A DNA stretch of 47,127 bases, the filler included, from Jimgerdemannia flammicorona (Eukaryota), in assembly GCA_003990765.1 (NCBI GenBank). It is 2 parts of 2 records of this genome, joined end to end, with 100 filler letters (N's around TTAATTAATTAA, not from the genome) between each part and the next. Parts side by side here need not be neighbours in the genome. Positions count along the whole stretch, not along the records: positions 23,626 to 47,127 come from RBNJ01001099.1; 1 more part is not named here. One strand, given 5' to 3'. Every line of letters begins with the position of its first letter. The first letter of the stretch is position 1. Below are positions 2,691-47,127 of this stretch, piece by piece. The notes beneath the pieces were generated by a model. The model was given only the letters and a program-made list of their open reading frames with translations. It was not told the DNA's origin and did no database searches. A program made the position numbers and the translations under genes.

Positions 2691-3134
2691 CTATTCAAAT
2701 TTCCAGGCCTCAACAGTCTATATAGTTTTGTACTATATAATCTATTGTATTATTGTCTTCCAATGATATCATCTTACTAGCTCAAAATTAGTAAGAGTTA
2801 TTCCTTGCAGGTGGACTAGTACTGGTTCATCATCTCAAAATAACTTATGAATTCTTTTGGCAATAGTAATTTGTGAATAAAAGAGCTGACACTCTGTAAT
2901 CTAATCATTCTTAGTCATTTCTGGGCTCTTGTTGAGTATCTGTCTAAGTTTGAAGTACTCTTGGAACTCTGTCTAATAGTAGTAGGCCTTGAAGTGTGAA
3001 ATTCAAGAGAGATGGGTCTGTATGATACTTTGGATACTATTATAAAATTCTTCTATAGTCAGGGGTTCTGTGGTATTCCATTGTCTCTCAATGGCTCTTT
3101 GAGTAGTACCAGTGATCTTGACTGCTGTTGCTAT
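2691..3134 (-). pseudogene. Post-integrase accessory ORF ('ORF3', ~147 aa) of unknown function
   Basis: 444 nt in one frame from ATA (likely ATG) to TAG with no frameshift; internal stops are all derivable from CGA/TGG/CAG. The amino-acid sequence is conserved with the copy at 40589-40824. Confidence 0.75.
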
Positions 3135-3139
3135 GCTTT

Positions 3140-5600: not shown

Positions 5601-5849
5601 GGGACAGGTCTTGTATTCTGATAAATTGGTTCAGTATCTCTAGTATCTATATCATAATAGTAGTGTGGAGTCTTTTCTTTGATATTCTTAAAGTCTGTAG
5701 TGAAGATATTCTCAAATTCATAAAGTATTTTCTTGAGCTCTGTCTTGAGTGGGAATTCATTTCCAATAGTGTAGCTATGCTTATTTATAGTTTTCTCCTT
5801 TTTGTACTCCAGCTCAGTGATCTTGATACTGGTGAATACTTCTCTTCCT

Positions 5850-6260
5850 ATGAATCTAAATTCTTTCTTTCCTCTCTCTGTTTCCTCTAGCTTCTTGACT
5901 TCTATGATCTTTGGTTGTAGGATCAGAAAGATCAGCATCTGTGCCAACCAGTCCTTCTTCTTGACTGGAAATGGTATTGTAAGATTATGGTTCCTAGCAA
6001 TGAGTAGGATTTCTTCAGTATAATCTGAATCAATGACTCCTCCTTCAATCACAATTTTGCTCTTGGCCAGATTGCTTCTTGTCTTGAGGATCCTGACATA
6101 ATCCTTTGGGATTGTCATCTCTAGGCCAGTTGTGAGTAGAGTAGTTGTCTGAGATTTGAGTACAGTTTCCTCCACTATAGTAATATCCATTCCAGCTATT
6201 TTTCTGACTTGTATTCTGGTAAGACTGTATCAGAATAAATCTTCCAAATCTTGATCTTGA
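5850..6260 (-). pseudogene. dUTPase domain within Gypsy pol (between protease and RT)
   Basis: IKIWKIYSDTVLPEYKSEK/AGMDI (motif 1, frameshifted), TGL..IP, RSNLA (motif 2), GGVIDSDYTEEI (motif 3), KDWLAQML (motif 4), TERGKKEF (degenerate motif 5, RGxxGFGSTG). Confidence 0.9.
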
Positions 6261-6639
6261 TTTCCTCTTCATCATCACTGTCTTTGAGGAGAGCTGGTGG
6301 TTTGTCACCCTCTTCTTCTTTCATTTTTTTTTTTTCTCTTACCTGTTTCTCAAGGGCCTTCTCTCTTCTTTGGTGGTAAATCTCCTTTATTTTGCCAGTA
6401 CACTGGTAACACTCATTGACATACTCCATATAGTACATTTAGATCCCATGGGGGCAGACTTCTTGTGGTATATATTCTTCTATAATCTTCTTACACCAGT
6501 CTTCTTTACTCATCTATCTAATTTCCTTCTTCTTTTTCTGAGTTATCACCATATAGGCTTTCTCTTGTTTGTTCTCTTCTTTCTCTATCTCAGATAGAAC
6601 TCCTTTGTTGATATTGATGGGAATTCATATCTTCTATCT

Positions 6640-8380
6640 ATGGTAGATGATTTATATCTTTTAAGTATTTAGATCAATTACTGTCTTGACTTTGTAAAGT
6701 TATTAATTGCTAATAAAGATGTTATAGTTGGTTGCATTGGTCATGATTACATCTACTGAAATGATTGCTCTTCCAAACTTGATGGGAATATCTCAGATCT
6801 TTCCCAGAGATGTAGCTCTTGTATTATCTGCTATGACAAACACCAATTTGGTTGCTTCTTCAACTTCCCAACCTAGGTGGTCTGCTGCTTTCTTACTGAT
6901 AAGACATTCTTCTGCTTCTATATCAATGATAGCCTCAAAGACTCTATCCTCAATTTGACAGGTTGCATAGATAGAGATTTTATGGTTGTCTTTACTTTCT
7001 TCTCCTAGGTCCTCTTGAAAATTATTGGTCTCAGTTATCTTCCATTCTTGCTCATTGGTTGTTTCAGCAAGTCTGTATCTGAATATAGGTATTTCTACTA
7101 GCTGACCAAAGATTGCATTGAGTTTTTGTTAACTGAGGTCCTTGAAGATATTATACTTAAAAGTCTTGGTTTTGTGAAGCTTCTTCTTCTTTTCTCCTTT
7201 ACTGGCTAGAGTGATTCCTTAGATGATATCTTGAACAGCCTGTTCTAGCTCTATATCTTGATCTGTTTCTTCACCTTAACTTTCTGTAGCAGTCTCTATC
7301 TGCTTTTCTACAGAGTTCTTCTTAGATCTCCCTGGTGGTCTCTTGTAGAGTTATTTATAGACATCTTTTCTGATAGTCTTAGTAGAGTAGGCTTTTTATT
7401 TCTCTTCATCTGATTTCCCAATCTCCTCAAAGATAATGATGTTAGCCTGTTTCTTATTTTAAGTAGTATTGCTTGGCTGTACCTTGTGCTTAGTTTTACT
7501 CATACATTTATATAAGTACTGGTCCTCTTCTCTACAAGTGTAGCAGGTACCTCTCTTCTTGTCTGAGGTGATAGTAAATTTCTGAACTAGGCAGCAGTCT
7601 CTTTCTTTGATTTTATTTACTATATCTCCTAGGTAGGCTGTCATTTCAGCAAACTTCTTGGCAAGTTTCTCCATGGGGTCACTATTTCTCTGTTGTTTAG
7701 TAGTTCTTAGTTGAGGTATATTTTGATTGATTACTATAGTAGGGATCATGCTAGTTACCTTGGGTGCTTCAATTCTGACTCTAGTGACTCTCTCTATTGT
7801 ATAGTCTTGTAGATGTCTGGCTATCTAGTATTGCTGAGTATAGATAACTTTCTGTATCAGATCCAGAACTATTGGTAATGAGTGAATGGCCTGGGCTATC
7901 TCTGGGTGGATTTCTTTCGAAAAGATTACTTATGGCTACTTGATCTCTAATGGCAGCAGCATAATTTGCAAGAATTATCTAATATTGGATTCTGGTGTAG
8001 AATGTGTTTGAATTCTTACTTATTTCTTAGCATATTGTTGAGCTAATTCTTTAATGCCTGCTTGATCTTGTCTATATAGTATGTGGCTTGGAGCCAGGTT
8101 TTCTGTGCTGCTAGTATAGTATCATTATCATTTCTTATATAGATTGCAGCTATAAATACTGCTCTTACTGATCCTCAGAGACTGAAGAGTATGAGGATTA
8201 CTTGCTGCCTTACTGAGGTCTCTTATAGTGATGTATTACTTGAAATTATCAATGAAGGTAATAATTGACTCCTCTAAAGTACATATAACCATAGAATATT
8301 GGTAGTCTTATATCCATCTTATCTAGATATTTTGGTTCAATTTATATGGTTGTTTGGGTGGTAGAAGTTGTTCATTATTT
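6640..8380 (-). pseudogene. Gypsy gag and aspartic protease
   Basis: Degenerate zinc knuckle CYTCREEDQYLYKC (intact as CYSCREEGHYSYEC at 42210-42251). Protease AIIDIEA at ~6920 (AIIDTGA in the copy at ~42835-42853). Confidence 0.85.
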
Positions 8381-8431
8381 AGTTTGAAAGTGAGGGATTC
8401 ATCTTAAATCATCAGCCAATAGGTACTAAGT

Positions 8432-8879
8432 TGTAACATAGTAGATACTTAACCTTGGAAGTATGTCAGATTTCTGTATCTTGAAAACTTGATCTTCTTT
8501 GACTCTATAGAGTCCTCGGAATATAGGGGTGGGTGAGTTTGAAGTATATCTACCTGTAGGCTTACTAGTTTCTTTGCTTTCTCTTTGCTTTGAACTATTT
8601 CAATCTGAGGTTTAGTCACTCTAAGATACTGGGTTATTTATATAAGTTTGCTAGCTATAAGGTGGGTGGCTAAGTTATGAGTTATTTTGAAAGTGTCAAA
8701 ATATTTTGACATTGTTGAAATACTATACTATATTGGGTCTTCAATTTTGAATCTTTTAAAATATTTAGAAATTGTCAAAATCAGAGACTGCTAACTATAA
8801 GACTATGCTAATTTGGGACTAGTGGTGATCAAGTATCTATTCTCTATTTTCTTTTTCCAAATTTGGTTCTACTATCATA
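8432..8879 (-). repeat. 5' LTR of the Gypsy element
   Basis: tgtaac...atcata. Followed on the minus strand by acttagtacctattggctg, which is also present after the LTR at 41315 (possible degenerate PBS, TGG>TAG). Confidence 0.95.
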
Positions 8880-9009
8880 ATACATAACATCTAAATTTTG
8901 AATATATATAAATATATCCAAAGATATCTGGCTATATCTGCAGCTAATACAGATATCAGATATATATAAATATATATACCCAGAGCAGATATACTTAGAG
9001 CAGATGTTA

Positions 9010-10030
9010 GGAAAATTTTCATAATATAGACTGAAGACTTAAATAATTGCTGATCTATAACTAAGAACTTTTTTTCAATTAAACAACAAAGAAGTTATTT
9101 TATAGCAAATATATAAGCAGAGTTCAGTAGTAATATCATCTATATAAGTAGAGTATCAAGTATTATTCATAGTAACAAAGAAAGTTATTTGACTATATTA
9201 GCTATTAAAGAAACTCATATTTGATCAGAAATAGCACTTTATACTCATTTATTAGAATAACTAATCTATAATTACTATGGTAAAAAACTCTATTCATTAT
9301 AGTAGAATTAAATATATTAATATATGATACTATTATATAAGAGAATATATAGAGAATAGAACTATATACTTAGAATATATTTCTATAGTGAATATTATTG
9401 TAGATTTACTTACCAAAGCTCTTCTAGAACCTAAATTCTAGTAATACACTAATGAAATAAGTCTTATAGTAAACTATATACCAGTATTAAACTATATGTC
9501 AGCAATGAGTAATAATAAAAAGGAAGTAGAAAAACAATATAATATATCTTTTTACATCTCTTTCTCTTTAAGTATTATATTATAGTTATTCACTGGTTCT
9601 TCTTCTTCTTCTATATTTGTAATTTTCTACCATTAGAACCTATTTACATTTTTCATTTTTACTATAGTTTCTAATATTTTAAGTATGAGTAAATAGTATT
9701 ATTTTAGTATATTCACAGTAATTTTATAGTTAATTCTTGATTACATTACCTTGTATTTCTACTTATATTATATTCTTTCTTATATATTATCTCATTGAGT
9801 GAGAGTATTGAAATTCTCATTATTATAACTCAATAATGTAACTTATATATAACTACATTATTTTTGATTATATCACTAATTCTAATATATAAATATGTAC
9901 TATCTGGAATAATAAATAATACTTTCTCTCTTCTCTCTACTCTATATTCTAACTAAGATATAATAAAAGAATTTTGTAATAAGAATACTACTTTATTCTT
10001 ATATTTAGAGAATGTAGAGCTAAGGTTACA
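9010..10030 (+). mobile_element. Ty1/Copia 3' relic: RNase H, PPT and start of 3' LTR
   Basis: EYISIVNIIVDLLTKALLEPKF..YTNEISL (cf. copia xxADxLTKAL). PPT-like gagtgagag (9797-9805) followed by tattgaa (TGTTGA-like) at 9806. Right boundary uncertain. Confidence 0.7.
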
Positions 10031-10299
10031 ATATATTCAGTATAGATATATTTGAGGTTATATCTAAATATAGTATGCTAGATATATCTATATATATTTA
10101 TACTATTTTAGATAACTATGACTACTAGTTGGAATTTTTATAGAAATTTCCATAGAAATTTCTATAAGAATTTCTGTCAGAATTTCCAGTGACTTATAGA
10201 TATATAATAATTTATTATATTCTTCCCTTCTTTACCTAAACCTACTCATTGAACTCAGTACTAAACTCTAGATACTTATCAAACTAAAGGGCAGTATAT

Positions 10300-10620
10300 T
10301 AGACTACTTGAAAAATAATATTACTTTATTATTCATAACTCAAATTAAAAATGTTCTTGGAGAATACTCTATAGAGATAGTTGAGGACTTAGGATTAGGT
10401 GCAGAAAAGAACATAGAGTCTTTTGATAATAACATAGATATGGTTATTAATAAAAAGACAGACTTGTTGTTTGACAGTACTGAGAGTAGCTTATTAATAG
10501 ATAAGAAATTCTATCTCCTAGTATTTCTTAATTCTTATTAGTAGCAAAAAGTCTAGAAATATTAAATCTTTCTAAGATATTGTCAGACTTTATTTGGATC
10601 TGAATCTCTAGAGATTTATA
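10300..10620 (-). pseudogene. Highly degenerate homolog of Gypsy ORF3
   Basis: V.QYLRKI.YF.TFCY..EL aligns with IQTHLSRISHFKAYYYWTEF. IIKRLYVLF-x6-LNYLYRV...NIIFQV aligns without gaps with IAKRIHKLF-x6-LVHLQGI / NIITQI. Confidence 0.55.
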
Positions 10621-10869
10621 TGTTGACAGAAAGTAATTTGATAGAATTCCATTGGTAGTCAATAACTATAAGAATAGTAATACCAATCTTATTCTTAGTT
10701 TATTCTCAGTATTATTACTAGATACTTATATTGAGAGTAGGTTATCTATATGAGATTGTTTCAAAATATTTATACTTCTCTTCATTGAGATATTATGAGA
10801 TATAACTGTCTTTTAGGAATTCTATCAGAATTTCCATTATACTAGAGATCTGTATTAAGTTACTGCTTC

Positions 10870-13800
10870 TTTTATATTTAGCAAAATATTGTCTTCTTTT
10901 TTTCAGATAGTATTATATTCAGGATATTCTTTCCATTTTATGAGATAGTACTGAGTAAACTTAGCAGCTTATCCAAATCAGCAATCCTTATAATCTAAGA
11001 TATAGTCTACTTCATATTCTGATTACTAATTAATAATTACTAGATCTGAAGATAGTATGGTTCGTCTTTTAAAGGTATTTGGAGTATATAGCTGAAGTTG
11101 AGATATATAAAATACTGGGTGAATTCTCTCTAATATTGCTGAAATATCTAACTTATATATAACAGGTCTATATTTTTTAAGAATCTTGAATAATCTAATA
11201 TAGTAGAGTCTAAGCTTCTTTTTAGAGTCTATATTATCTAGAATTAGGTACCAGATACTGAGTAATACTTATTCTCCTTTTTGGTAGATAACTACTATTC
11301 TATTTTTGTCAATATATACTACTTATATTCTTTATACCTCTATGAGAGCATCTCATGCTTGCTAGATGTTATCTTGTATAGTATATATCAGTAATTTCTT
11401 ATATAACTAGTACTATAGTTTAAGTGACAACTATAGAAGTTTATTAATACTATCTATAGTTTAGATAAAATAGTATCATCTTGATACTTATACTTAAGCT
11501 ATTATTATATATGAATTTAGCTAGCTTTTTATTCTAATTATTTTACTTATAGCCATAATAGATATAAAGTATCTACTTTAGAGTTTAATTAGTTATTTCT
11601 ATCTATCTATTTGTTTACAAATAGCATGCTATAGACATTTTCAGTTACACTTCTAGGCTCTTGAAGAGTGCTTGCCAAAAGTTACTTGTGAATTTTATAT
11701 CTCAGTCTGAGGTAATTATTGATAGTAGTTTGTAAAGACAGAACATAGTATCAATAAACAGCTATACTATTTCTAATACTATTGTAATAGTAGTTATTAT
11801 AAAAATGTAGGCCTGCTTGCTGAGGTAATTAATAAAGATAATAATTATATCTCTTCTCTTCTTAGTTTTTGGCAATTAGATAATAAAGTTCATTCTGATA
11901 TGATCTCAATTTTGAGTGAAAATTAGTGTATAGCTACCAAATAGTTGCTAGACTTATATCTTTAATAGATATTGTAGAATATAATATAATTCTTAATGTT
12001 AGATGTTATTTTAGACTAATAAAAGTCTTAGGCAATATGCTAATATGTTTTGTCAAATTCTATATACATATCTAGCTATAGATATATCATATAGTTCTTG
12101 CAGGATTCATAAGTAGATAAAAGAGTCAGAGACTTAAATTCTTATATTATTAAGATATATATATTTATTTTGGACAGATATATTCTTGTAGATCTTCTTT
12201 ATAATATTGTTGCCTTCTTTAAAGACTTATTTAGCAATTTCTTATATATTGATATTATTATTTTTTTTTTTTTAGAGATCAATAGATATTTCATGATGGG
12301 CTGAACTTACACAGAACATTATTTGGATGGCAAAATATAATATACTATAGAAAATAGACAAAATTGGATAAAAAACCAAATAAGTAAAAAAAAAACATAA
12401 TACTTTTTCTGCTCTTCAAGTTGATAAACTCAAGGAGAAAAAGAAGCTATATACAAATATGATAGCATACTATCCCCATTTTGAATCAACCAAAATCTGC
12501 CATAGACTACCACCTCTTTTCTTTATAAGATCTATTTAATCTATACAGAACTCCACTAATATCTTCTAACTAAATACTTATACACCAATACACTCACTCA
12601 CTTCCCCTCTCCTGCCTCTTCCTCTATATTGATACATCATGACCTAATTGATCTTATCTCATCAAACCTCTCATCTCAAATCCTCCTAAATACTCTCTAA
12701 GTCTTTCACCAAATCTCTCTTGATACAACATACCTCTCTCAATATCAATCCAGATAGGATACTCTGTAGTACCCTCCTACATAGTTCTGATAGTGACCAT
12801 CTGGAGCTGTAGAGAGTTATTGATCTAACTGATAATGTATCTTCTCATTAGGACTTACTAAATTAGTTAATGGTATGACTAATATGAGAGTGATAGTTGG
12901 CAGTGAGATAAAGCAGATATGGTTAGATGAAGATAGCAACTGGAGTGGCTTCCTATACAAGTAAGGCAACAAGAACATTATCTATCAAGAGAAGCCAGTT
13001 AAGTACTTTAGATATGTATATACTTATAGATAATATAGTATATAGGGGGGGGTAACTGAGTGGAGTATATATTAGTATTCTTGGTATACTTCTTGACTTC
13101 TTCAAATAGACTAGTGATAATATTATCAATTGCAGTAAAATCATCTTTCTGAGAACTCTGAGAGAGTGTATCAGCTACTTCATTCTTGATTATAGCAATA
13201 TACTTGATTTTAATATCAAAGAGTACAAGGATCTACTTCTAACAGATCTGTCTTTCTATAATAATTGGCTATATCTAAATATATTAGAAGGCTTAACAGT
13301 CTGTCTATAAGATAAATATTTTGCTGAGGAGAAAATATCTCTATACTTACAAAGATTGAATGATGATGAGAAGTTTCTTATCTTACATAGTATAGTTTCT
13401 TTCATATTCATTGAGGTTCTGAGACAGATAGGTAATAGGGTATTTATATTGAGTCAGGATGGCTCTAGTGGTAATATTTGAAGTATCAGTAGTAACTACA
13501 AAGAGTTTTGTTGAATAAGATCTGATCAAAATTAGTATATTAATTAATATTCTCTTGAGGGTATTCATAGCTATAGAGCATCCTTCTGTCTATTCTTTTT
13601 TGACATTGGCTCTCTTCCTGGAGGCTTGTGAGTAGAGAGGTAATTATAGAAAATTCTTGAATAAATCTCCTATAATATCCTGCTAGTCCCTTGAATCCTT
13701 ATAGAGACTTGAGGGTCTTTGAGATGAGCCAATTATAGATTGCTTATATCTTCTTAGAATCAACAGCAATATTATTTTCTGAGATAATATATCCTAGGTA

Positions 13801-14165
13801 TTCAATTTTCTTCTTAAAGAAGTAGTATTTCTTTCTTTTGCTGAGAGCTTATATTCATAGAGTATATATGTAGATATGCTGGTCTGGTTTTCAAATCAGC
13901 TTCTTCATCTGAATGGCAGAGATAACATCACATCTGGGCTTGGGTTTCTTCTTGGTATATATACTTGGGTTGTAACTTGATATCTCCTAGAGAGATTATA
14001 TTGGTTCACCAATCAATGTGGAAATTTTCCTGAGTAAGCCAGGATTTTCTGAGGATGAGGTTGTGTCCAGGGAGATGTGTGATGTTAAAGGTTTGCTTTG
14101 TGGTGTAATTTCTGAGTTGTAGGAGTGTATTCTTACATATATTGAAGAGTTTCTGTATTCCATTA
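10870..14165 (-). mobile_element. Chromovirus-type Ty3/Gypsy relic (PR, partial RT, RH, IN, chromodomain), interrupted by a LINE
   Basis: HNLILRKSWLTQENFHIDW (protease end, ~14000-14070); FVVTTDTS...PITYLSQNL...ERNY (RNase H, 13383-13570); SD.DIKFTSNFWQALFKSL (integrase); RIHPVFYISQL; EVDYILD...YLIKWKEYP (chromodomain, ~10890-11015). Confidence 0.85.
12262..13382 (-). mobile_element. 5'-truncated non-LTR retrotransposon (LINE) relic inserted in the chromovirus
   Basis: Poly(T) at 12262-12273 (poly(A) tail on the minus strand); degenerate RT-like segment (..PLS..PLY...DNVLV); splits Gypsy RH from IN. Confidence 0.6.
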
Positions 14166-14769
14166 AAATAAAAAAGGTTTTACGATGCGCCGGCTGGAAT
14201 TTAATGTTGATCTGTATTGAAAATTAATTCGTAGAGTCAGCGTGAATATCTCCTTCGCTGATAATCCCTCATCGGAGATTCTGCTAGGATTTCGCCTCGG
14301 CATGGTAGTTCCAATTCACCGATAACCCTGACCTTTTGATTAGATTTCGAGGCGCAAATATCCGAAGTACAAGCTACCGCATCATTTTACGAACGATTGA
14401 GTAATTTATTCATGAATGAGGGGTTCCTTGGCCTGATTGTTCAATCCTGGTGCATATTACCCGCCACAGCAGACTAGTGAAATCGTATATTAAATCAGAT
14501 ATTAGTGCAGAATGCTGTGGCATGAGATGTTTACTATTAAAGATCCATCCGATGGACCGTCGCACATTAATTAATAAATCATAACGCAAGCCGAATTCTG
14601 CACACCTCATGAAATGCGAGTGGAGACAACCGCTCCTGCCATGATAAAAAGCCCAGCCCGATATCCTGAAATCCTCATCCAAGCATCCACTGCTCCTTCA
14701 TTACAAACCAAAGCCAAATCTCAAATACCAACGCACCCCTCAATCCTCAACCACAAACCATCAACCGAA

Positions 14770-15471
14770 ATGAACCTCACCCGCTCTATTCTCCTCCTCG
14801 CTGCCGTTGGTGTGGCTTCCAGCATCCCCGCTCCGCCTCAGGACTACGCCGCCGAGGCCGTCCACCACGACGGTCCGCTCGCCGGTGCCGACGTCTCTGC
14901 TCAGAACAAAGCCGACTTCGAAGCCCAGAGGTGGGGCTGGGGTGGCTACGGGTTCCGCCGTATGTACGGCTTCCCAAATATGTTTTCACGCCCTTGGTTC
15001 AATAGGCCCGTGTACCCGCCTTTCTATAACTATTTTTATGGCGGCCCTTATATGGGAGGTGGATTCGTCCCCTTTTCCGAGCCCGACTACTCTACTCAAT
15101 CTGTTCCTGATGAGCATAACAACCCGGCCCCGCAAAGCGTGGAGAGCTTGGATGCTGCCCCGCTGACAAAACGTGACACTCAAGACAATCGTAAGCCCCA
15201 CGGTCCCTACGGTCCTCACGGTCCTTACTACTCCAACAGTCCTTACGACTATCACAGTCCTTACGACCATCACGGTCCTTACGACCATCACGGTCCTTAC
15301 GACCATCACGGTCCTTACGACCATCACGGTCCTTACGACCCTCACGGCCCTTACGACCCTCACGGCCCTTACGACCCCCACGGCCCTTACGACCCCCACG
15401 GCCCTCACGACCCTCGCGACCCCCACGGCTCTCGCGACCCCCACGGCTCTCACGACCACCATGGTGTTTGA
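14770..15471 (+). CDS. Secreted 233-aa protein: signal peptide, acidic spacer, Gly/Tyr/Phe/Pro-rich peptide, Kex2-like KR site, His-rich (PYDxHG)n tail
   Basis: Intact single-exon ORF with C-ending codon bias and CpG retained. ATG at 14770 in GAAATG context after a C/A-rich 5' UTR. MNLTRSILLLAAVGVASS is a classical signal peptide. LTKR precedes the repeats. Confidence 0.9.
   Translation: MNLTRSILLLAAVGVASSIPAPPQDYAAEAVHHDGPLAGADVSAQNKADFEAQRWGWGGYGFRRMYGFPNMFSRPWFNRPVYPPFYNYFYGGPYMGGGFVPFSEPDYSTQSVPDEHNNPAPQSVESLDAAPLTKRDTQDNRKPHGPYGPHGPYYSNSPYDYHSPYDHHGPYDHHGPYDHHGPYDHHGPYDPHGPYDPHGPYDPHGPYDPHGPHDPRDPHGSRDPHGSHDHHGV
15196..15468 (+). repeat. 18-bp coding tandem repeat (~14-15 units, e.g. 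CCTTACGACCATCACGGT)
   Basis: Directly visible; encodes PYDHHG, PYDPHG and PHGSRD variants. Confidence 0.95.
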
Positions 15472-23525: not shown

Positions 23526-23625
23526 NNNNNNNNNNNNNNNNNNNNNNNNNNNNNNNNNNNNNNNNNNNNTTAATTAATTAANNNNNNNNNNNNNNNNNNN
23601 NNNNNNNNNNNNNNNNNNNNNNNNN
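23526..23625. other. Artificial 100-bp gap/linker (N43-TTTAATTAATTAA-N44)
   Basis: N runs flanking a multi-frame stop spacer; a concatenation or scaffolding artefact. Confidence 0.95.
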
Positions 23626-31842: not shown

Positions 31843-32097
31843 AGATATAGATTATGTTCTCTTATTTCTTTATTATAGTTAAAGTAGTTAAGTGTAAATA
31901 TAGATTGATATTTATATCAGTGATCATTATTTTAATAGGTCTTATAGATAGTTATAAACTATTATAAGTCTATTGATAAGGATAAAGTGATTAGAGTTAA
32001 TAGAGATTTTTGACTGGAGGGCATATTGATATTAAAGAAGTCATTGTCTTCTACTTTATTATTATCAAACTGAATTATATTATAGATATCCTTTATA

Positions 32098-32100
<3 letters not shown>

Positions 32101-32142
<42 letters not shown>

Positions 32143-32218
32143 GTCTCTTGGACTGCCCTTTATTACCGAATCTATAGTGTCTACAATATAAGTCACCCAC
32201 CCATTCAACCAATGCCCC
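32101..32218 (-). mobile_element. Very short (~120 bp) 5'-truncated copy of the same LINE family with 12-bp TSD
   Basis: TSD TCCTTTATAGTA (32089-32100 and 32219-32230); poly(T) plus the reverse complement of the LINE 3' UTR. Confidence 0.9.
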
Positions 32219-33639
32219 TCCTTTATAGTATATCTCACTTGGAACATCTGCAAGATATGGTCATCTGGGTGCAGAAAGGGTCTATCTATAGTTCAAATAT
32301 ACTTAATATACTTCTGGTTGAGTTTTTATATCATATTTCAATTTGGCTATAGGTTAGAGTAGTAATTATTTTAGTAGTAATAACTTAGAGATAGAGAATA
32401 AAGATGCTATACTTATAAAAGAGTTTCTGGTATTTATATGTAATGAGTTTCTGGTGTTGAGATATTTCACTAATATCAATATTATAACTATATCTTTGAG
32501 GAGACAGCTGATCTAATAGTAGCTTGAGATTTGTCTAATTTGGTAAGTTTTGCTAAATATGTTCAAGATATTTCATTGGGCTTCTATAAAATAGAGGAGT
32601 GCTAAACTATGAGAGTGCTGTGGCCAAGTTGATAATAATATTCTAAATATTAATATAGATATAGTTATAGACTTTAGTAGTTATAGCTAAATATATATTT
32701 GAGAGTTATAGTTATTATTTGGTTTATTATAGTTCTCTATTTTGATATACTATTTATCTGATATATATGTTTTTGATCTTAATTGATAAAGTTTTATTTT
32801 TATACATTTTGTATTCTGTGACTTTGAGTTAATTTAGCTGATAGCACCAATTTGTTGAAGTATTTTGCTGACTTTATTAGTCCATTTGGCTTTCTTTAGA
32901 AACCACTATCATTTTTGATACTTAGTATTTTATTTAGTACTAATAGCAGCTTTTTATTTCATTAAGATTCATTCTCTATTATTAGAGAACTCTTTATTGC
33001 TAGCTAGAGATAGTGATGATATTATTCTTGTTTTATTTATATAAAACAATCCTTCATTAGCTGTAATTTATATTTTTTTCCATCTTATCTATATAGTAAT
33101 AAATATCTAGATTTTATTGATAGTATTAAGAATATTATTTAGAAAATCAGAACAGTTAAGTTACAGATCCATTCTGATAATAAATACTATTTATTTATTA
33201 TTTTTTTTATTAGAGTAGCCATACTTACTAGTTCTCAAATTTCTGTATATTTTATAAACTAAATTACTAAGAATATAGACAGATAAATACAATATATAAA
33301 TTATAATTTCATAATATAAACTCAAATAACTGTAGATACAAACTAATAGATACTAATAGATTTGTTTTCTTGAAAATACAGTTATATGAACTAAATAGTA
33401 AGTATATAGATAGAAACTTATAGTAATATGAACTAAATAGCTATAAACTCAAACTATATTAAATAATATAAACTCAAATAGTTATAAATACAAATTAGTA
33501 AATATGAACTGAAGTTTTTTTTCCTAATAGAGAGTAGAAAGAAGTAATAGTGTTATTTATTAATTATTCATATTTTTATATATTAAGTAATATATATAGC
33601 TTAAAGATAATATAGTTATATAGTGCTCTGAATGAGTCA

Positions 33640-33960
33640 ATTCGAATCAAATCTGGATTTGATTCATCACATGATGGTTTGATTCGAATCTCAAATCCAA
33701 AGCCATCCGAATCAACTTGGATTTAATCCGAATCACCCCATCTGAATCACCCCATCTGAATTACCCATCTGAACCACTCCAATCCGAATCACTCAATCCA
33801 AATCACCCCATCTGAATCACCCTATCCAAATCACCCATCCGAATCACCCATCCAAACCACCCCAATTCGAATCCTCCAATTCAAATCCTCCAATTCGAAT
33901 CCTTCAATCCAAATCCTCATCTGAATCCTTCAACTGAATCCTCCAATCCAAATTCTCCAC
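33640..33960. repeat. Left subterminal repeats of the hAT (ATCCGAATCACCC-like units)
   Basis: Many ~12-14-bp units; related GGATCAATCC/TTCGAATC units at 39735-39900. Confidence 0.9.
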
Positions 33961-34054
33961 ATGACTCATATGCTGGATGTATCCACAATACAATACACAC
34001 ACACATGTATACACACACATGCATATACATGCACATACAAACACGCAAACACAC

Positions 34055-36638
34055 ATGTCGACAGATCAGTCTTCAACAGTTCACAGTACCGATGATGCTT
34101 CAAGTCAAACATCCCTGATAGTTCCACACCTTCCATGCAATCCTCACTCCGAAATCTGACAACATTGTGCTAAGATAGGAGATGATGTTGTTTGTAATTA
34201 TTGTAGGTAAAAAATTAAGATGCACCTATTGACACTTTGTTTTGACACATACATAATATTGTTTTGACACATACATGATATTGTTTCATCCACCTCCATG
34301 AACTGCACCAGCCAGAAGTTCAAAATGCTTGGGGGTATAACTTCAAACATAAATTGACACATAAAAGACAAGCACTCTGACAAAATCAAAAAGAACATGG
34401 AGACAAATAAAATCGACATCCAAGCTGTAGTGGGTATGTTTATCTGATTGCCTGATCATTTCTGTACCAACAATGCCATTTAATCAAAAATATTTAGCCA
34501 TACTCTTCGGCAGAATTTCGAAATTGGCTCATTTGCTGGATTGTGTGCACAGACCAGCCATTCACAATCATTGAGAGTGATCAATTGCATAGCATCTTTG
34601 GCCTCCTCAAGCATGATTTATATTTGCCAAGTACCGATACTATTCACAAAGATGTCCTGGAGGCCTATAGGAAGGAGCATGACAATCTCCGCCAGATACT
34701 TCAGGTAAAATAAGGACAGCACCATGACCTTTGCAAGCTGAATTATATAAAAGAGCTCACCAATTTAACCTCACATTCAATAAGCAGAATTCAGCAGGCA
34801 AAATTTCGTTTATGATCGATACATGGATATCTCCCAATGCAATTTCATTTCTGGGCATTACCAGTTATTGGATTGACCTCGATTGGCAGCTTAAATCTCT
34901 CACCCTTGACTTCATCAAACTTGCTGGCCCTCATTCTGAAGACAACATCACAGATGCTTTTATTAGTTGTATCCGGGAGCTTAGGATCACCACCAAGGTA
35001 AAAAAGGAGGGCTTGCCGTCAGGTCAGTGTTTTGAGAGAGGTCCTAAACCAAACCAGATTTTATTGGTTACTTATTTTCACATAAAATTGTCAACCAAAT
35101 ATTTCAAGTATAGATTTTGGCCATTATGACGGACAATGCCACAAACAACTCAACATTTTTCCAAGATTTAGTGGCCAGCCTCAAACAGGAAAATGTGGCC
35201 TTCAGTATAGAAAGCTGCCATATGTGATACCAGGCCCATGTACTGAACCTCACTGTTCAGGACTATCTTACATACATAGACAAAACATCCGAGAGAGAAG
35301 AGGCCCTGAGTATAATTTCCAAGCTGCACAAACTGGTTGTGTCGGTCCGATCATTCCCACAATGACAAGACAAATTCGCTGCGCAGTGTAGGGCAATCAG
35401 TTTAGCCCTGAAAGAGCTTATATTGGATGTCTGTATATGTTAGAACTCAACATTTGCAATGATCTAGTGTGCACTGGAGTTTGCTGTGGTATGTATCCTT
35501 TTTTTCTTCAGTTGGCTGAAGCAACTGTTTTGGATGATGGAAGATTTATTTTAAAAAAAAAAAAAAAAAAAGCCAATAGATTCAATGATGGCTGCCAACA
35601 AGGAAATACAGACCGAGGCTCTAAGTGAAAGCGAGTGGGATGTACTTAGGAATGTTGTCAGAGTTTTGGAAGTAAGTAGTAGTTGTCCTGGCTTCACACT
35701 CGTTTTGTCTACCTCTGTACAATGCAACACCTCACCACATATAACTGCCAGTGTTTCGACGATTGTACAAAGGATATAGTCAAACAAACGACCCTGACAA
35801 TAAGCTCTGCGATACTGGTATACAACCTTCTGATTGACTGGCTAGAGGAAAAGCTTGAGGACAGGCTGGAGGGTTGCAGTGATTTACGGTTAAGCCCGGA
35901 TCAGAGAGACACCATAGAGGTTGCTCTAAGTAAGCTTAGAAAATACTACTTCCAAACAGATACCACCGTATACTCAATTAGTACAGGTATATCGATGTTG
36001 GCATGTGGCCATTGCCCCTTCCAAAACAGAGGAAACTCCGCAAAAACTCACTCTCCTTTTCTTCGAACAGTGCTGGACCCATGCTTAAAGCTACAATACC
36101 ATAAAGATCAGGGCTGAGAGCAGCACTTCATTGAGAGAACCAAGCAGGCCATAATTGAAGTGTACCAGAAAAACTATACACCACTGCAAGGTTCTGGCTG
36201 AAGTCCGGATGAATATGCTGAGGGATCCCTCCTGTCCCACATTTACTTCGGCAGAAAGAGGAAGAGGGAGCCATCAGTGGAAGAGCTGCCATCAATAGAC
36301 GAACTTACCATTTACCTCGCCAGCAACCGTGTGGTCCTGCTGGAGAGCACAGAGGTGCTCAACTAGTGGAAGGTGAGTTGTCAGGCGGGCATTGGGCCAA
36401 TTTAACCCACCAATCTAACTACCGCTCTACCCACTGGGGCATACAGCTACATCAAATGGACTTCCCCAGCCTGTATGGTATGGCTCAGGACTACCTGGTG
36501 ATTCCTGCCTCCAGCGCTCCCATCAAGTGGGTGTCCTCAGATAGGGTGGACCTTGTTGCCCCAAAGAGGTATGCGCTGAATGCTAAGACAATCCAGGCAT
36601 GTATGTATCTGAAGTCTTGGTGGGGCTCAGGCCGCTAA
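34055..36638 (+). pseudogene. hAT transposase (BED zinc finger, DDE core, dimerization domain), multi-intron, inactivated
   Basis: SEI(W)QH..VVCNYC..HLxxxH; DQPFTIIE; ISFMIDTW; MTDNATNN; (R)YQAHVLNL; (W)NSTF.M; VLDP; FPSL..MAQDYL.IPASSAP. Introns at 34705-34787, 34998-35113, 35489-35572, 35672-35751, 35987-36070 and 36373-36446. The catalytic ER reads KW (GAG CGG>AAG TGG); several premature stops. Confidence 0.95.
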
Positions 36639-36769
36639 AATTCGGCAGGTCTGCAGATAAGTCGGTTGGCCTTGTAGAATATTTAATACCTTTCAAAATA
36701 ATAAAAAGGAAAAAAAAACCTAAAGACTTGGCCCAGAGTTTGTGGCCAAAGTGGGGTGGGGTTGGCAGC

Positions 36770-37240
36770 AGCGATGGAGAGAGCACACAATATTTGCGGC
36801 CCTCAGCCAGCAGCAAGGGACAGCCCCAAGCTGCCAGTGCCCGGGTCAGTAGGCAGGTCGGTGGGCAGGTCGGTGGGTTGGTGGGCAGTGGGCAGGTCAG
36901 TGGAGGGAGTGCACAAAATTTGTGGCCCTCTGCCGGCAGCAAGGGGCAGCCCCAAGCCACAAGTGTCTAGGTCGGGGGGTAGGTGGAGGGAGTGCACAAA
37001 ATTTGCAGCCCTCCACCAGCAGCGAGGGGCAGCCCCAAGCTGTCAGCGCCCAGGTCAGTGGGCAGGGTCAGTTGGCGGGCACGGAGTTGGTGGAGAGAGC
37101 GCGTAAAAATTTGCAGCCCTCCACCAGCAGCAAGGGGCTGCTCCAAGCCACAAGTGTCCGGGACGGGCAGGGCAGGCAGAGGGAGCATGCAAAATTTGTG
37201 ACCCTCCACCAGTGGCATAGGGGTAGCCCCAAGCCACCAA
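36770..37240. repeat. GC-rich tandem repeat (5 units of ~80-130 bp) between the two convergent genes
   Basis: Core GCACAAAATTTGCAGCCCTCCACCAGCAGCAAGGGGCAGCCCCAAGC at ~36783, 36911, 36993, 37101 and 37188, with G-rich spacers. Confidence 0.9.
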
Positions 37241-37542
37241 GGAGTCTGGGGTGGAGGGTGCTTCTGGCGGTTGAAGGGTGCTTCTGGCAGTTGGAGGGCA
37301 TTTCCAGCAGTCGAAGTTGCCAGTTTGGGTCCTATGGGCACCCTGGCCCTGTACTGCAGTGCTGCACCAGTAGCACTACAGAGCAGGGCTGAGGGGCCAG
37401 TAGGGCCCTGCATAACAGCTAAGCTAGTGCTACATAAGAGGCACCCAGCCCAACCCCCCACATAAGACTACCCAACCCACACAAAATAGCTGTCTAACCC
37501 TCACAAAAGATTGCCTAACCCTCACGAAAGATTGCCTAACCC

Positions 37543-39533
37543 TCACAAAAACTGCTCCACCCACCGGTCCCAGGCCTTGATGAGCCTGTCGTCTGTTGTG
37601 AGTGCGACGACTGTTGTGTCTGAGCTCTTCTCGAAGGCGACGGTGCCATGGTGGTCATGTGGTTGGAATAGGACAGGTGTTGGCCACAAACAGGACCCCA
37701 AAACCATAGATGAGGTCATACCAGACTCCACCGCTATCCTCCCAGATTGGGCCCTTCCTTTCTAGGATGTAAAACATTACTGGGGTGATGTTGTTATCTG
37801 TGTATGTGGGTAGAGAAAGGTTGTGCCCGATATATCCTGATGTGATGCAAGCATACAGTTAGGTGAACCCTTGGCCCAGGACCTCATACTGCCAGGCTGT
37901 GCTGGTGGATGCCTATCCTTGGTCCAGCCCCGGGAGCCCCGGCTTGGAAACCTGCCAAAATGGACAGCAACTGGTTAGTCCTTTTTGCCTTCGGGGGGGC
38001 AGAAACCCCCCGGGCTGCAGAAACCCCCCGGGCTGCAGCACCCCAAAAAAGCAGAGCTCCTCACCTCATACAGCATTAAATTGCACCAAGAATGTACATA
38101 CAGCTACACCAAGATCACCACCAAGCTGGTCTGCCATACGCTCTACCAATCTGCTCAAAGAACCCCAGATCATAGCCGCCATCGCCACACAGGCCGTGTC
38201 ATGCTCACGCATAGTTTGCTCTTCGATGGTACTTCTAAAGTTCTGGTAGGGGTACAGAATCTTGTGTATCTCTGGAATTGTATCAAAAAGAGTATGTCGG
38301 CAAAGAGTGTGATTTATCTGGAGAGGGGTTAAAAAAAAAAGAGAAACGAGTGCAGGGGATTTCAGAACTCCGGAACCCACCCTTCGCCAGTGTTGCAGTA
38401 TACCCAATTCCCATCCAAACCCCCCCTCCTTGCTTTTTTCACCCCCTCTTTTCTGCCACCTAGTATTTGACGCAATCCTCGCAAATCTCGTTGATGTGGC
38501 AGTGAAGCTCATTGCCATAGAGGTTCCTTACCACCATCACAACCACCTCTCCACGTTCATTAATAAAGATATGGTTCTCTTCATCATTGGTTACTCCTAC
38601 TGGCTAATGGACCCCTTGGTTGAGTACGATTGGCTCTGATTCGAATGTAGACCCCCAAGTCTTGATGATGATACTGGTACTGCTCATGCTGAACATCTTG
38701 TCCTCGAATTTCTCTATTTGATCGGATGCCAGATGTGGTTGAACTCGGAAAACTTTGAACTCTCCTTTTTAATGGAACTGAGCCCTGATCTGAGAGACCG
38801 AGATAAGTATGTGGACAGGTTGCATGCAGGCGGGTTGCATTTGGGCAGGTTGTGTGCAGACAGGTTGCATGCGGGTTGCATGCGGGTGTGAGTGTTTTTT
38901 AGGGGGAGACTATGTAAAAATGAAATTAAATAAAACACAGAGATGGGTATTTCAGAAAAAGAGTATGAGTGAGTAAGCTGCATGCTGACAAGTTGCATGC
39001 CGACGAGTTGCACGAGTTGCACAAGAATTGCTCATGAAGGCTTGCTTCTATTCCTTTTGAGACCTCTGCCATGCAATGCATTGACTCAACAGCTCAGCCA
39101 CCAAAGGCATGCTCCACAACATCTGCCAGCCTTTCTTCATCTTGACCAGATATTGTGAATAAAGTTGGCAGACCTCGCCGTAGAGCTGTAGACCCTAAGA
39201 AAAGCATGAGGTGAATTGGGTCGTGCTGGGGAAGTTTAAATAAACACAAGTAAACAAGTGGCAGCTGAGTGAGCAACCTATATCTACTATCGGCTGCTTC
39301 AAAAAGGCTGCCGCATATATAGCTGTGAGGTCTGTGAATTCCGAGGTTCGAAGGGCTGCCATGAGTTGTTGCTGGAATTCTCCCTCATCTCTGCCATTGC
39401 CATTGCCACCGCCACCACCATCGCCCCTTTGGCTCTCGATGAGCAGCTTGTGTGCTATCCATATGAGAAAGAATCTAACATTGTCAGCAGAGAGTGTGTT
39501 TCCACCTTGAATACTCCCTCTTTTGACAATCAT
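37543..39533 (-). pseudogene. TET/JBP-like 2OG-Fe(II) dioxygenase cargo gene, intron-containing, inactivated
   Basis: Reconstructed exons: IFINERGEVVVMVVRNL...GVWMGIGYTA; EHDTACVAMAAMIWGSL; GHNLSLPT[Y<H]TDNNITPVMFYILER...SGGVWYDLIYGFGVLFVANTC/LFQPHDHHGT...VVALTTDDRLIKAW. HxD position at 37804-37796; distal HGT at 37650-37642. CTAAC branch point and AG acceptor at 37971-37978. 5' start uncertain. Confidence 0.7.
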
Positions 39534-39979
39534 TGTAGGGTGAAAAATGAGTAGACTGGACCAACATACAAATTAAGGGCTGCTGCTTTGTTTGCTCATG
39601 ATGCGGCAGGAAAGAACAAAGAAAAAGAACAAAGAAAAGAGAGGGAACAAAGAAAAGGGTGATGTCACCAAAGTGCGGTAGAAAAAAAAAAACAAGAGTG
39701 AAATGAACAAAAGAAAGGGTGACGTTACCAAAGATTTCAATCTGGATGGGTCAATCCGAATGGGTCAATCCAGATGGATCAATCCAGATGGATCAATCCA
39801 GATTAATCCAGATCAATCCGGATCAGATCATGAGACCAATCCGAGTTGATTCGAATCTATCACATGATGAATCTGAATCAAATCTCATCCAGATCAACTC
39901 CATTCATTCAGAGCACTATAGTTATATATATATAAGCTATATATAAGTTACAAATTATTAAGATATAATAATTTAAATA

Positions 39980-40855: not shown

Positions 40856-42857
40856 TGTGACGGTACAGCCAAATTTGGAAGAAGGAAATAGGGAATAGAC
40901 ACTTGATCGCACCCATTCCCAAAGTAGTATAGCCTTATAGTTAACAGTCCTCGATTTTGACATTGTCTAAATTCTTAGACATTATCTAAATCGAACACCC
41001 TGATTTAGTATAGCATTTAGACATTGTCCAAATATTTCGATAAAGTCCATATGACTCATTTATTACTTAGCCACCCTCTCATAGCTAGCAAACTTGTATA
41101 AATAACCCAGTGTCTTCGAGTGAATAAACCTCAGATCAAAATAGTTCAAAAGTAAAGAGATAGCAAAGGAACTAGTAAGCCTATGGGCAGATACACTTCG
41201 AACTCACCCACTCTCCCCTGCAACTTCAAGAGACTCTGTGAGAGTCAGAACAGTCAAGTTTTCAAGATACAGAAATCCGACGTACTTTCAAGAGTAAGTG
41301 TCCGCTACATTACAACTTAGTGCCCATTGGCTGGTGATTCAAGACAAATCCCTCACTTTCAAGCTGAACAACGAACAACCACCACTATCCGAACAACCAT
41401 ACAAACCGAGCCCCAATACCCAGATAAGATAGATATGAGACCACCAGTATTCCATGGATATACATATACATACCTCAGATGAATCAATCATCACCTTCAA
41501 TGATGATTTCGAGCAGTATGCTGCTGTAAGGACTCTGACAGCAGTATAGCAAGTAGCCCTCATGCCCTTCAGCCTATGAGGCCCTGCCAGAGCAGCATTC
41601 ACAGCTGCAACCCATGCAGGAAATGATGCCAATGCCATACTGACAGCACAGAAGACCTGGCTCTGAAATATATATTACACAGATGAGATCAAGCAAGCCC
41701 TGAAGGATCAGCTCAACACAACGTGCCAAGGAATGAGTGAGGATCCAAACACATTCTATACCAGAATTTGATATCAGATAATCCTTACAGATTATACTGT
41801 TGCTATCCGAGATCAAGTAGCTGAAGCAACCTTCATGAAAGGAGTCCATCCAGAAATAGCCATGGCCATCTGCTCATCACCAGTGATTCTGGATCTACCA
41901 CAAAAGGTCACCTATGCTCAGCAATACTGGATAGCCAGACACTCACAAGACCATACAATGGAAAGAGTTACAGGAGTCAGAATCGAGGCACCCAAGGCAA
42001 CCAGTGTGATCCTCACCACAATGATCAATTGAAACACACCTCAGCCAAAAGCTACAGAGCAGCAAAAGAACAGTGACCCTATGGAGGAACTGGCCAAAAG
42101 GTTTGCTGAAATGACTGCCCACCTGGGAGATGTGGTAAAGGAAATCCAAGGAAGAGATCGCCGCCCTGTTCAGAAGTTTGCCGCCACCTCAGACAAAAAG
42201 AAAGGTACCTGCTACAGCTGCAGAGAAGAAGGCCACTACTCCTATGAATGTATGAGTGAAACCAAACATAAGGCTCAACCAAGCAATGCCACATGAAACA
42301 AGGAGCAGGCCAATACAATCACCTTTGAAGAAATCAGAGAATCTGATGAAGAGGAATGGGAGGCCTATCCTGCTCAGACCACCAAGAAGGATGTTCGCAA
42401 GGAACCCTACAAGAGACCACCAGGAAGACCCAAGAAGAACCCAGTAGAAAAGCAGATGGAAACTGCCACAGACAGTCAAGCCGAAGAGATGGACCAAGAT
42501 ATTGAGCTAGAGCAAGCAGTTTAAGATATCATCTGAGGAACCACTCCAGTCAGTGAAGGAGAAAAAGAAAAGAAGCTTCACAAGACCAAGACCTTCAAGT
42601 ATGATATCTTCAAGGATCTCAGTCAACAAAAGGTCAATGCAACCTTTGGTCAGCTTGCAGAAATCTCAACATTCAGACAGCAAATGAGGTTTGAACTTGC
42701 CAAAACAACCAAGGAACAAGGATGGAAGATAACCAAGACCAATAATGTTCAAGAGGACTCAGGAGAAGAAAGTGAGGACAATTGCAAAACCTCTGCTTAT
42801 ACAATATGCCAAATTGAGGATTGAGTCTTTGAAGCCATCATTGATACAGGAGCAGGA
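40856..42857 (+). mobile_element. 5' LTR (40856-41314), gag and protease start of the same Gypsy family, less mutated, truncated
   Basis: TGTGAC...TTACA LTR retaining CpGs; CYSCREEGHYSYEC knuckle; EAIIDTGAG, then abrupt loss of homology. Confidence 0.92.
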
Positions 42858-42904
42858 CAGGAAGCTTGCCAAAGCCAGAGGGCCCTACTACAGATACTAA
42901 GAAC

Positions 42905-44210
42905 CTGCACGGGCAACACAGGCAACATGGGCAACATGGGCAATACAGGCAAGACAGCAAGATGGGTGACATGGGCAAGACAGGCAGATGGCAAGACAGG
43001 CGACATGGGCAAAATGGGCAAAACGGGCAACATGGGCAAAACGGGCAATACGGGCAACATGGGCAATATGGGCAATACGAGCAATACGGGCAACACGGGT
43101 AACATGGGCAACATGGGTGGGCAAGACGGGCAAGACAGGCAAGATGGCAAGACGATAAGATGGGTGACATGGGCAAGATGGGCAAGATGGGCAAGATGGG
43201 CAAGATGGGCAAGATGGGCAAGACGGGCAAGATGGGCAAGATGGGCAAGATGGCAAGATAGCAAGATGGGTGATATGGGCAAGATGGGCAGACAAGATGG
43301 GCGACATGGGCAAGATGGGCAGATGGCAAGACAGACGACATGAGCAAGATGGGCAAGATGGGCAAAATGGGCAAAATGGGCAAAATGGGCAAAATGGGCA
43401 ACACAGGCAACATGGGCAACATGGGCGGGCAATACGGGCAACACAGGCAACACAGGCAGGCAATACGGGCAACACAGGCAATACGGGTGGGCAACAAGGG
43501 CAATACGGGCAACACGGGCGGGCAACATGAGTAACATGAGCAACATGGGCAACACGGGCAACATGGGCAACATGGGCGGGCAATACGGGTAACACGGGCA
43601 ACACAGGCGGGCAATATGGGCAACACAGGCAATATGGGTGGGCAACAAGGGCAACATGGGCAACACGGGCAGGCAACACAAGTAACACGGGCAACACGGG
43701 CAACACAGGTGGGCAAGACAGGCAAGACAGGCAAGACAGCAAGATGGGTGACATGGACAAGACAGGCAGATGGCAAGATAGGTGACATAGGCAAGATAGG
43801 CAAAATAGGCAAAACGGGCAATACGGGCAATATGGGCAATATGGGCAACACAGGCAACATGGGCAACATGGACAACATGGGTGGGCAAGATGGGCAAGAT
43901 GGGCAAGACAGGCAAGACAGATAACACAGGCAACATGGACAACATGAGCAGGTAACATGGGCAATACAGGCAACACAGACAACATGGGCAGGCAATATGG
44001 GCAAGACAGGCAAGATGGGCAATATGGGCAAGATGGGCAAGACGGGCAATATGGAGAACACAGGCAACACGGGCAGGCAACACGGGCAATATGGGCAACA
44101 TGGGCAACATGGGCGGACAAAATGGGCAAGACAGACAAGATGGGCAAGATGGCAAGATGGCAACACAGGCAACATGGGCGGGCAAGATGAGCTAGATGGG
44201 CAAGACAGGA
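42905..44210. repeat. Satellite of ~9-bp units (ATGGGCAAG / ACGGGCAAC), array 1
   Basis: Directly visible; over 100 degenerate units with higher-order blocks. Confidence 0.95.
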
Positions 44211-44214
44211 AGCA

Positions 44215-44458
44215 CTAATAGGGGTAGGTCAGGTGCACTAGATGCCAAGTACTTGAGGTAGTTGGGGCTCACAACCCATACCCACTAGGTGGAGCAGACC
44301 GGATAGGAGGATCTAGTTACTCAGGCAGTGAGGTCGCAACTCACACCCTAAAGGTGCAAGGCTGGAAGTGGATTGAGATTGGGGTAGAATAGGACTACTG
44401 ATGTTGTATGAGGATATGTGGCATGTTATAGATAGTTAATAAATGACTATTAAAAAGG

Positions 44459-46200: not shown

Positions 46201-46237
46201 TTCTAGTTTCAGCAAGTTACAAGGATTTCAAGAATTT

Positions 46238-46797
46238 CGGGGCAAGATGGGCAAAACGATACAGGCAAGACAGACAACACAGGCAACATGGGTAACATGG
46301 GCAACATAGGCAAGATGGGCAAGACGGGCAAGATGGGCAAAATGGGCAAAACGGGCAAGATGGGCAACATGGGCAAGATGGCAAGATGAGCGACATGGGC
46401 AAGATGGGTGACATGGGCAAGATGGGCAAAATGGGCAAAACGACATGGGCAAGACTGGCAAAACAGGCAAGATGGGTAACACAGGCAAGACGGCAAGACG
46501 GGTGATATGGGCAAGATGGACAAAATGGGTAAAATGACAGGGCAAGACTGGCAAAGCAGGCAAGATGGGCAACATGGGCAAGACAAGATGGGCAACATGG
46601 GCAAGATGGGCAAAACAGGCAAAATGACAGGCAAGATGGGCAAGATGAGCAAGACAGGCGAGATGGGCAAGACAGGCAAGATAGGCAAGATGGGTAACAT
46701 GGGCAAGACGGGCAAGACGGGCAAGATGGCAAGATGGGCGACATGGGTAAGATGGGCAAAACGGGCAAAACAACATGGGCAAGATGGGCAAAATGGA
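46238..46797. repeat. Satellite of ~9-bp units (ATGGGCAAG), array 2
   Basis: Same unit and orientation as array 1. Confidence 0.95.
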
Positions 46798-46799
46798 CT

Positions 46800-47127
46800 G
46801 CTTGGGTAGTGAAGAGGCTGATGAAACTGGCTAGGGACTGGATTTGGGCAGGTAGAAGGGCTCAGATCAGTTGGGATACCCTTGTTGAGCCAGTGCTTCG
46901 GGGAGGCCTGGGCCTTGTGGATTTCCCCAAGCGTCTACACTGCCTGCGAGCTTGGTGGTTGAAAAGGGCTGTTGATCTACAGGGAGGAGGTTGGGTGCCG
47001 TTGATGATGAAGGTGTGGGAGATGAGAGTCGCTCCCCGGGGGTCCACAGGGGATCTACTCTCTTTGGTGGGTCTGAATGGAAGCCGACAGCTACGGTATA
47101 AGGGCTTCTGGTGGGGAGTGGTTGATG
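46800..47127 (+). pseudogene. L1/Tx1-like ORF2 fragment (post-RT region), runs off the window
   Basis: WIWAG...ISWDTL..P..RGGLGLVDFPKRLHCLRAWWLKR, homologous to 30560-30870. Confidence 0.9.

Follow-up and report, generated by a model that had tools for sequence, protein, structure and literature searches.

DNA transposons of the Kyakuja-Dileera-Zisupton (KDZ) and Plavaka groups are reportedly associated with TET/JBP genes in basidiomycetes, an observation ascribed to Iyer et al. in 2014. A more recent survey (Kojima 2025; PMC12730594, December 2025) reports that TET/JBP genes travel with DNA transposons from many superfamilies. Among fungi, such genes were acquired by at least a dozen transposon lineages, hAT included, and twenty TET+ hAT7 families are reported from six Puccinia species (rust fungi). 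Three types of TET/JBP domain, PU, AG and PE, are distinguished, with sequences printed in Table S1 of that survey. PE-type domains are recognized as TET-like only by HHpred, at weak e-values (1.4 and 19), and the structures of CMD1, NgTET and CcTET are matched by PE-type models from AlphaFold DB with e-values below 1e-5 (PMC12730594, section 3.2.3). An anti-silencing role for the transposon-borne enzymes was proposed there, and stated not to have been experimentally validated (section 4.2). Demethylase-like enzymes borne by transposons are of interest as a counter-defence against methylation-based genome defence. Here we describe an element in a 47,127-nucleotide stretch of DNA (hereafter the window) from Jimgerdemannia flammicorona (assembly GCA_003990765.1). 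The element occupies positions 33621–39918 (6,298 bp), delimited by a pair of terminal inverted repeats (TIRs), and holds two genes. It is best explained, with a probability that we put at about 0.6, as a decayed copy of a two-gene hAT transposon in which a cargo gene with the layout of a PE-like TET/JBP dioxygenase converges on the transposase gene.

With the KDZ and Plavaka carriers this element would share a dioxygenase gene that travels with a DNA transposase, the transposase here being of another superfamily. A preliminary description of the locus held that no hAT carrier of such a gene had been described; the twenty hAT7 families of Puccinia contradict this, and the point is therefore out of date. 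Like those families, as the survey presents them, the present element combines a hAT transposase and a TET/JBP-like gene within one TIR-bounded unit, in a fungal host whose repeats undergo C-to-T decay. The ends are different: hAT7 elements are described as making 7-bp duplications and starting with CAACGGTGGG or CAGCGATGGG, with termini of the form CA[AG]CG[GA]TGGG, whereas the element here starts with TAGTGCTCTG, does not fit that form and has an 8-bp repeat on either side. The cargo is different as well. That of hAT7 is of PU type (GG.MW.IGWRK, H.D, R-L-G-x-S), and the cargo family here is without these strings, for example GWRK. Within Table S1, motifs of the present cargo family are absent except for one unrelated WYDL in AG-type rows, and TAGTGCTC does not occur within the first 400 bases of the consensus sequences. 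The AG-type domains printed there are not colinear with the cargo family. The element is not one of the described hAT7 families, and is best read as a dead member of a new family of a known kind, DNA transposons with TET/JBP-like genes.

A decayed cargo gene and its relatives

The cargo gene lies on the minus strand and converges on the plus-strand transposase gene. Its last exon, with stops written as X, was used as a phmmer query against 1.84 billion representative proteins, and four matches were obtained at E≤0.001: P0002 (136 aa, E 2.8e-39, 71% identity to the window piece), P0003 (134 aa, E 5.5e-15, 50%), P0004 (374 aa, E 1.3e-08, 34%) and P0005 (128 aa, E 9.6e-05, 34%). The best of these, P0002, is a metagenomic protein, and an E-value as low as this in a set of that size excludes chance for the cargo gene. 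A fifth relative, P0020, was the only match in a word-index protein search with P0004; the same kind of search gave no match with the window piece, and with alignment A2 as the query it returned only P0004 and P0002. The family alignment used below has eight rows, the window piece and seven relatives.

The three exons that homology supports follow one another on the minus strand. The first (38379–38768) holds the blocks GEVVVMVVRN and GGGVWMGIGY, both conserved and aligning with P0004 and P0020; its part at 38604–38768 is aligned by eye only. The middle exon (38135–38269), which covers a helical insert region and has no stop, aligns with residues 168–212 of P0004 and 49–94 of P0020. The last exon (37543–37942) contains the HxD site (YTD here), GG-x-W-Y, HHGT and the C-terminal helix, and ends at the stop codon 37545–37543. 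Over these exons the gene is colinear with residues 92–328 of P0004 and with P0020. The preliminary description had let the gene run from ~39533 to 37543, and all the peptide strings that it quoted are indeed present on the minus strand. The 5′ exons that it proposed (39533–38769, minus strand) correspond to nothing found in the relatives; because nothing upstream of ~38768 matches, homology backs the cargo gene only over ~38768–37543.

The copy in the window is a pseudogene. Its frames hold five stops (38606–38604, 38462–38460, 38441–38439, 37915–37913 and 37861–37859), and within the last exon the frame changes at 37680–37676, where P0002 reads ANTAVLFQP straight across without interruption; this fits a loss of two bases, the lesion that had been suggested. 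At 37804–37802 the codon is TAC (Tyr), as claimed earlier, at the position of the family's first metal-binding His, and His is found there in all seven aligned relatives. The reality of the cargo gene, its decayed state and its membership of a protein family are shown by these data, whatever the protein's function in intact copies.

A search for related loci found two, both on soil-metagenome contigs (L001 and L002) and both carrying a three-exon gene; in L001 the breaks fall at the same places as in the cargo gene of the window. None was found among prokaryote genomes and viral contigs. The two contigs come from different samples and are 99% identical over 2.7 kb (L001 1–2716 against L002 156–2870), and the copy in L002 has two in-frame stops. 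Both are 34% GC with an observed/expected ratio (o/e) for CpG of 1.2, so that the host of these contigs, unlike that of the window, is without CpG decay. A search of sequencing runs listed no RNA run; it listed only three soil-metagenome DNA runs, all from one study (shares 0.16, 0.06 and 0.05).

Nature of the cargo protein

Across the family alignment P-T-H-x-D is conserved, followed by a GG-x-[FW]-Y strand-loop and, ~50 residues on, by H-G(T/S). H-x-D is present in six of the seven relatives, the exception being P0005 with H-V-N, while H335-G336 is invariant in all eight rows. The HxD…H iron-binding triad is present in the family and fails in the window copy, in which the first His is Tyr. 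A presumed site of two histidines and one carboxylate, HxD with a downstream His, is what the family has in common with CcTET, NgTET, TET2 and CMD1, on the published descriptions of these enzymes; it is unlike them in having no sequence match to any PDB chain and no Arg at the usual place.

Searching the ESM Atlas with P0004 gave a top cluster, from Basidiomycota, with a score of 0.96 and 209 of 256 features in common; PF20515 (2OG-FeII_Oxy_6, where 2OG stands for 2-oxoglutarate) is annotated in 15% of its members. The next clusters are unnamed and fungal, from Basidiomycota and Mucoromycota, and at rank 11 comes one in which 16% of members carry PF12851 (Tet_JBP). All ten best family-bearing matches fall within one family or clan. 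With a 67-aa open reading frame (ORF) of the window as query the Atlas gave no lead, the best score being 0.85. No paper containing the term PF20515 was found in a literature search.

By eye, six blocks stand in the same order in the cargo family and in the PE-type domains of Table S1: GE.V..V.RN, R...G...SAG, LPR.D, Y..R..H.[ED], GG.F...N[TS]..I[WF].P...HGT and GL...T..RL. The stretch ANT..LFQP.D.HGT of P0002 and the window has its counterpart in ANTLIAWQPKDWHGT of one PE row. The stretch from HGT to GL is ~7 residues shorter in the cargo family. Neither the PE type nor the cargo family is recognized by ordinary profile searches, and in the survey's listing the PE type has no hAT carrier.

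Several results weigh against a dioxygenase. Pfam searches at E≤10 found no relevant family for the pieces of the window, Tet_JBP (PF12851) and PF20515 included, and nothing relevant for P0002–P0006, P0020 and the exons of L001; the match to a double-stranded beta-helix or 2OG-Fe(II) profile that the preliminary description had named as a check was thus absent from window and relatives alike. PHROGs returned nothing relevant for the cargo family, and family profiles compared with PDB sequences at E≤10 gave 0 matches. Two AlphaFold2 models, built on alignments of eight and nine sequences, reached a mean predicted local distance difference test (pLDDT) of 37.6 and 40.0, and with the second, low-confidence model Foldseek found nothing at E≤0.001, only unrelated chains with template modelling (TM) scores of ≤0.2 that are meaningless. 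The correspondence with the PE type has no score attached, and the PE hallmark HxE is replaced by HxD here (THVD, THTD). In the ESM Atlas the recognition value of 2142 lies below the 2300 reached by most known families, and the Pfam labels cover just 15–16% of cluster members; since the recognition value falls short, the language-model link is a lead, not proof. Finally, the caveat that a 2OG-binding Arg is not evident was well founded: the R that opens the last strand in PU-type domains is replaced in the family by N, H, V or T. An Arg that lines up with the SRL of the PE type does occur 8–9 residues downstream (DDRL) in P0002, P0003 and the window, and the P0005 group is without it. With no Arg at the usual place, the co-substrate or the product could be a different one, as in CMD1.

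These negatives leave room for a protein of another kind, namely an accessory protein of the transposon with a different fold and function, in which the HxD…H spacing and the resemblance to TET would be superficial. The lack of Pfam, PHROGs and PDB-sequence matches, the lack of a usable fold model, the missing canonical Arg and the HVN that P0005 has in place of HVD all speak for it. We regard it as unlikely, given that the best Atlas matches converge on one family or clan, that the six motif blocks are colinear with PE-type domains, and that the putative metal ligands are kept in P0004 and P0005, proteins only 34% identical to the window piece. A TET/JBP-like 2OG-Fe(II) oxygenase is a plausible identity for the cargo, on indirect evidence. 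What stands of the original proposal is the HxD…HGT layout in relatives, joined by the Atlas neighbours and the by-eye colinearity with PE; what does not stand is any support from a fold profile.

One other identity was considered and rejected. A phmmer comparison of the read-through last exon with PDB pointed to WD40 proteins (E 3.5e-8, all on residues 73–98, the DDRLIKAWD region), with 0 stretches passing alone; there is no Pfam WD40 match, and the string DDRLIKAWD is absent from P0004, P0005 and P0020.

If the cargo is indeed such an oxygenase, intact copies would encode an enzyme whose HxD and HGT residues hold Fe(II) and which oxidizes methylated bases (5-methylcytosine or another) in the DNA of the element itself. 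Oxidation of this kind would work against silencing by methylation and against the C-to-T decay that ensues. The fold, the substrate and the anti-silencing role are conjectural to this extent, and the role is the same speculation as that put forward in PMC12730594. The window copy, being a pseudogene, cannot carry it out, and is of value because it points to a family, not as an active system.

As such a pointer, the element would add another hAT lineage, and a divergent clade of enzymes, to the known carriers of TET/JBP genes, and it suggests that carriage of such genes extends beyond the three fungal classes covered by the survey (PMC12730594). The clade is invisible to standard annotation, since Pfam holds no model for it and the proteins that match are metagenome fragments, and it may deserve a type of its own. 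A bolder version, to which we give little credence as a whole, is that the cargo and its metagenomic relatives constitute a fourth, hitherto undescribed type of transposon-borne TET/JBP-like enzyme, related to PE, with HxD and without Pfam coverage or an Arg at the usual position, which was captured independently by a hAT lineage with 8-bp duplications outside the fungi surveyed, and which, like CMD1, may depend on a different co-substrate or produce a modified base other than 5-hydroxymethylcytosine (5hmC).

The cargo gene as part of a hAT transposon

In the left part of the element, on the plus strand, lies a hAT transposase pseudogene of several exons (34055–36638; exon model by eye), which can be followed from an ATG at 34055 to a TAA at 36636–36638, with short introns between. 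Its last exon contains the hAT C-terminal dimerization domain (36222–36638, plus strand), recognized by the Pfam model Dimer_Tnp_hAT (PF05699) with E 3.2e-9 and 36.9 bits, above the curated cut-off of 21.4; the C-terminus of the Hermes transposase matches the same exon weakly (E 0.3). DTW and DNATNN strings can be picked out by eye, and the DDE core has no profile match in frames broken by the stops. These number about nine in the motif-bearing frames (34157, 34355, 35225, 35363, 35441, 35465, 36115, 36199 and 36364), and the gene is therefore a pseudogene. With five stops, a frameshift and the His-to-Tyr change in the cargo and about nine stops in the transposase, the window copy as a whole is dead.

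Assignment of the transposase to the hAT superfamily is supported by these data, and together with the termini and the flanking duplication the Pfam domain upholds the original identification of a hAT transposon. Canonical hAT elements such as Ac, hobo and Hermes make an 8-bp duplication and have short TIRs beginning T/C-A-R-N-G, subterminal repeats and a C-terminal dimerization domain in the transposase. The element here has these features, and differs in holding a second, unrelated gene and in being a non-functional copy.

The cargo gene may be a regular part of its transposon family, a view that has to be weighed against the fact that its status rests on one copy of the element. Alternatively, it might be a one-off capture, or a piece of some other carrier of PE-like genes (a Zisupton, EnSpm, Plavaka or Helitron, for instance) that came to be nested in this copy. 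There is no second copy in the window to consult; the GC content is 0.43 in the transposase part and 0.50–0.58 in the cargo part; and the PE-type carriers described in the survey are all non-hAT (PMC12730594). On the other side, no internal TIR pair or duplication surrounds the cargo, the internal inverted repeats being ≤30 nt and mostly 70–81% complementary. CpG decay is similar across the two genes (o/e 0.36 and 0.44), and a convergent pair of genes within one TIR pair is the layout of TET+ transposons in the survey (PMC12730594). A one-off origin is thus doubtful in our view, and we favour a cargo gene that belongs to the transposon family.

The boundaries of the element are exact. The left TIR, TAGTGCTCTGAATGA (33621–33635, plus strand), and the right TIR (39904–39918, minus strand), its exact reverse complement, are perfect over 15 bp, and each is abutted by TAGTTATA, at 33613–33620 on the left and in identical form at 39919–39926 on the right. 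A single TIR pair with a perfect 8-bp target-site duplication, as first reported, is thus borne out; the flanking repeat is likely to be an 8-bp duplication, and a 7-bp reading is also possible, because there is a single copy and one of the eight bases could belong to the element. The TIR starts with TAGTG and fits the YARNG-type termini of hAT elements. Inside the left end lies an array of 14-bp repeats (33726–33959; ~10 + 7 copies of the unit ATCCGAATCACCCC and a variant), and inside the right end are 14-bp and 10-bp repeats with the unit TCAATCCAGATGGA (39737–39825), both located by a repeat scan. The subterminal repeats of the two ends are related to each other in an inverted-repeat comparison and are putative binding sites for the transposase.

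Scanning the 47-kb window for the TIR 15-mer with up to three mismatches gave six matches, of which only the two ends are free of mismatches and the other four carry three each; shuffled sequence averages 2.5 matches at the same threshold. No further copy of the element was found elsewhere in the window. A coincidental match of TIRs and flanking repeat around two unrelated neighbouring genes, the odds of short repeats being raised by AT-rich, low-complexity flanks, is highly improbable when the 15-mer occurs without mismatch exactly twice, inverted and at the ends only, next to identical 8-mers, when all other matches have three mismatches and when the subterminal repeats of the two ends are related.

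Other repeats within the element are 83–126-bp and 20-bp tandem repeats in the GC-rich stretch that separates the ends of the genes (36768–37298), and a 21-bp tandem repeat of 4.8 copies (37455–37555) that lies directly 3′ of the cargo stop codon and overlaps it. At 39620–39733, between the cargo start of the preliminary description and the right subterminal repeats, are two A-rich 54-bp direct repeats, each terminating in GGTGA[TC]GT[CT]ACCAAAG, which may be promoter elements.

CpG decay and the surroundings of the insertion

Inside the element CpG o/e is 0.27–0.44, with TpG and CpA in excess at 1.1–1.6, and in its flanks CpG o/e falls to 0.04–0.11. The element has suffered C-to-T decay, less than the DNA around the insertion. 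CpG is nearly lacking from the window at 1–14000 and 32001–33620, where its o/e is 0.01–0.05, GC content 24–33% and TpA o/e ~1.0–1.2. Because CpG loss is far stronger in the surroundings than in the element (0.38), the element postdates the repeat DNA at the insertion. The target of the insertion is old, AT-rich, CpG-free repeat DNA.

Other features of the window lie outside the element. A dUTPase domain (PF00692, E 3.3e-19) is encoded at 5588–6229 on the minus strand, beside gag- and protease-like ORFs, with neighbouring ORFs at 6793–7824 (minus strand); the region has a CpG o/e of 0.01 and reads as a retroelement-like remnant. Two regions, 42797–44228 and 46209–46934, are occupied by short tandem repeats in extended arrays, in which several frames of either strand are free of stops (LPILPV..., GQDGQD...). 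GC and AT skew are strong in both, and satellite-like DNA is a more probable reading than genes. Two stretches of 44 N, at 23526–23569 and 23582–23625 (88 N in total), mark the joint between the two parts of the stretch. The sole island of normal CpG (o/e 1.09, 47% GC) is at 14578–15471, on the plus strand; the ORF in it begins much like a signal peptide, goes on to repeat HGPYD over a long run and is without a Pfam match. A secreted repeat protein may be encoded here by a genuine gene of the host that escapes methylation.

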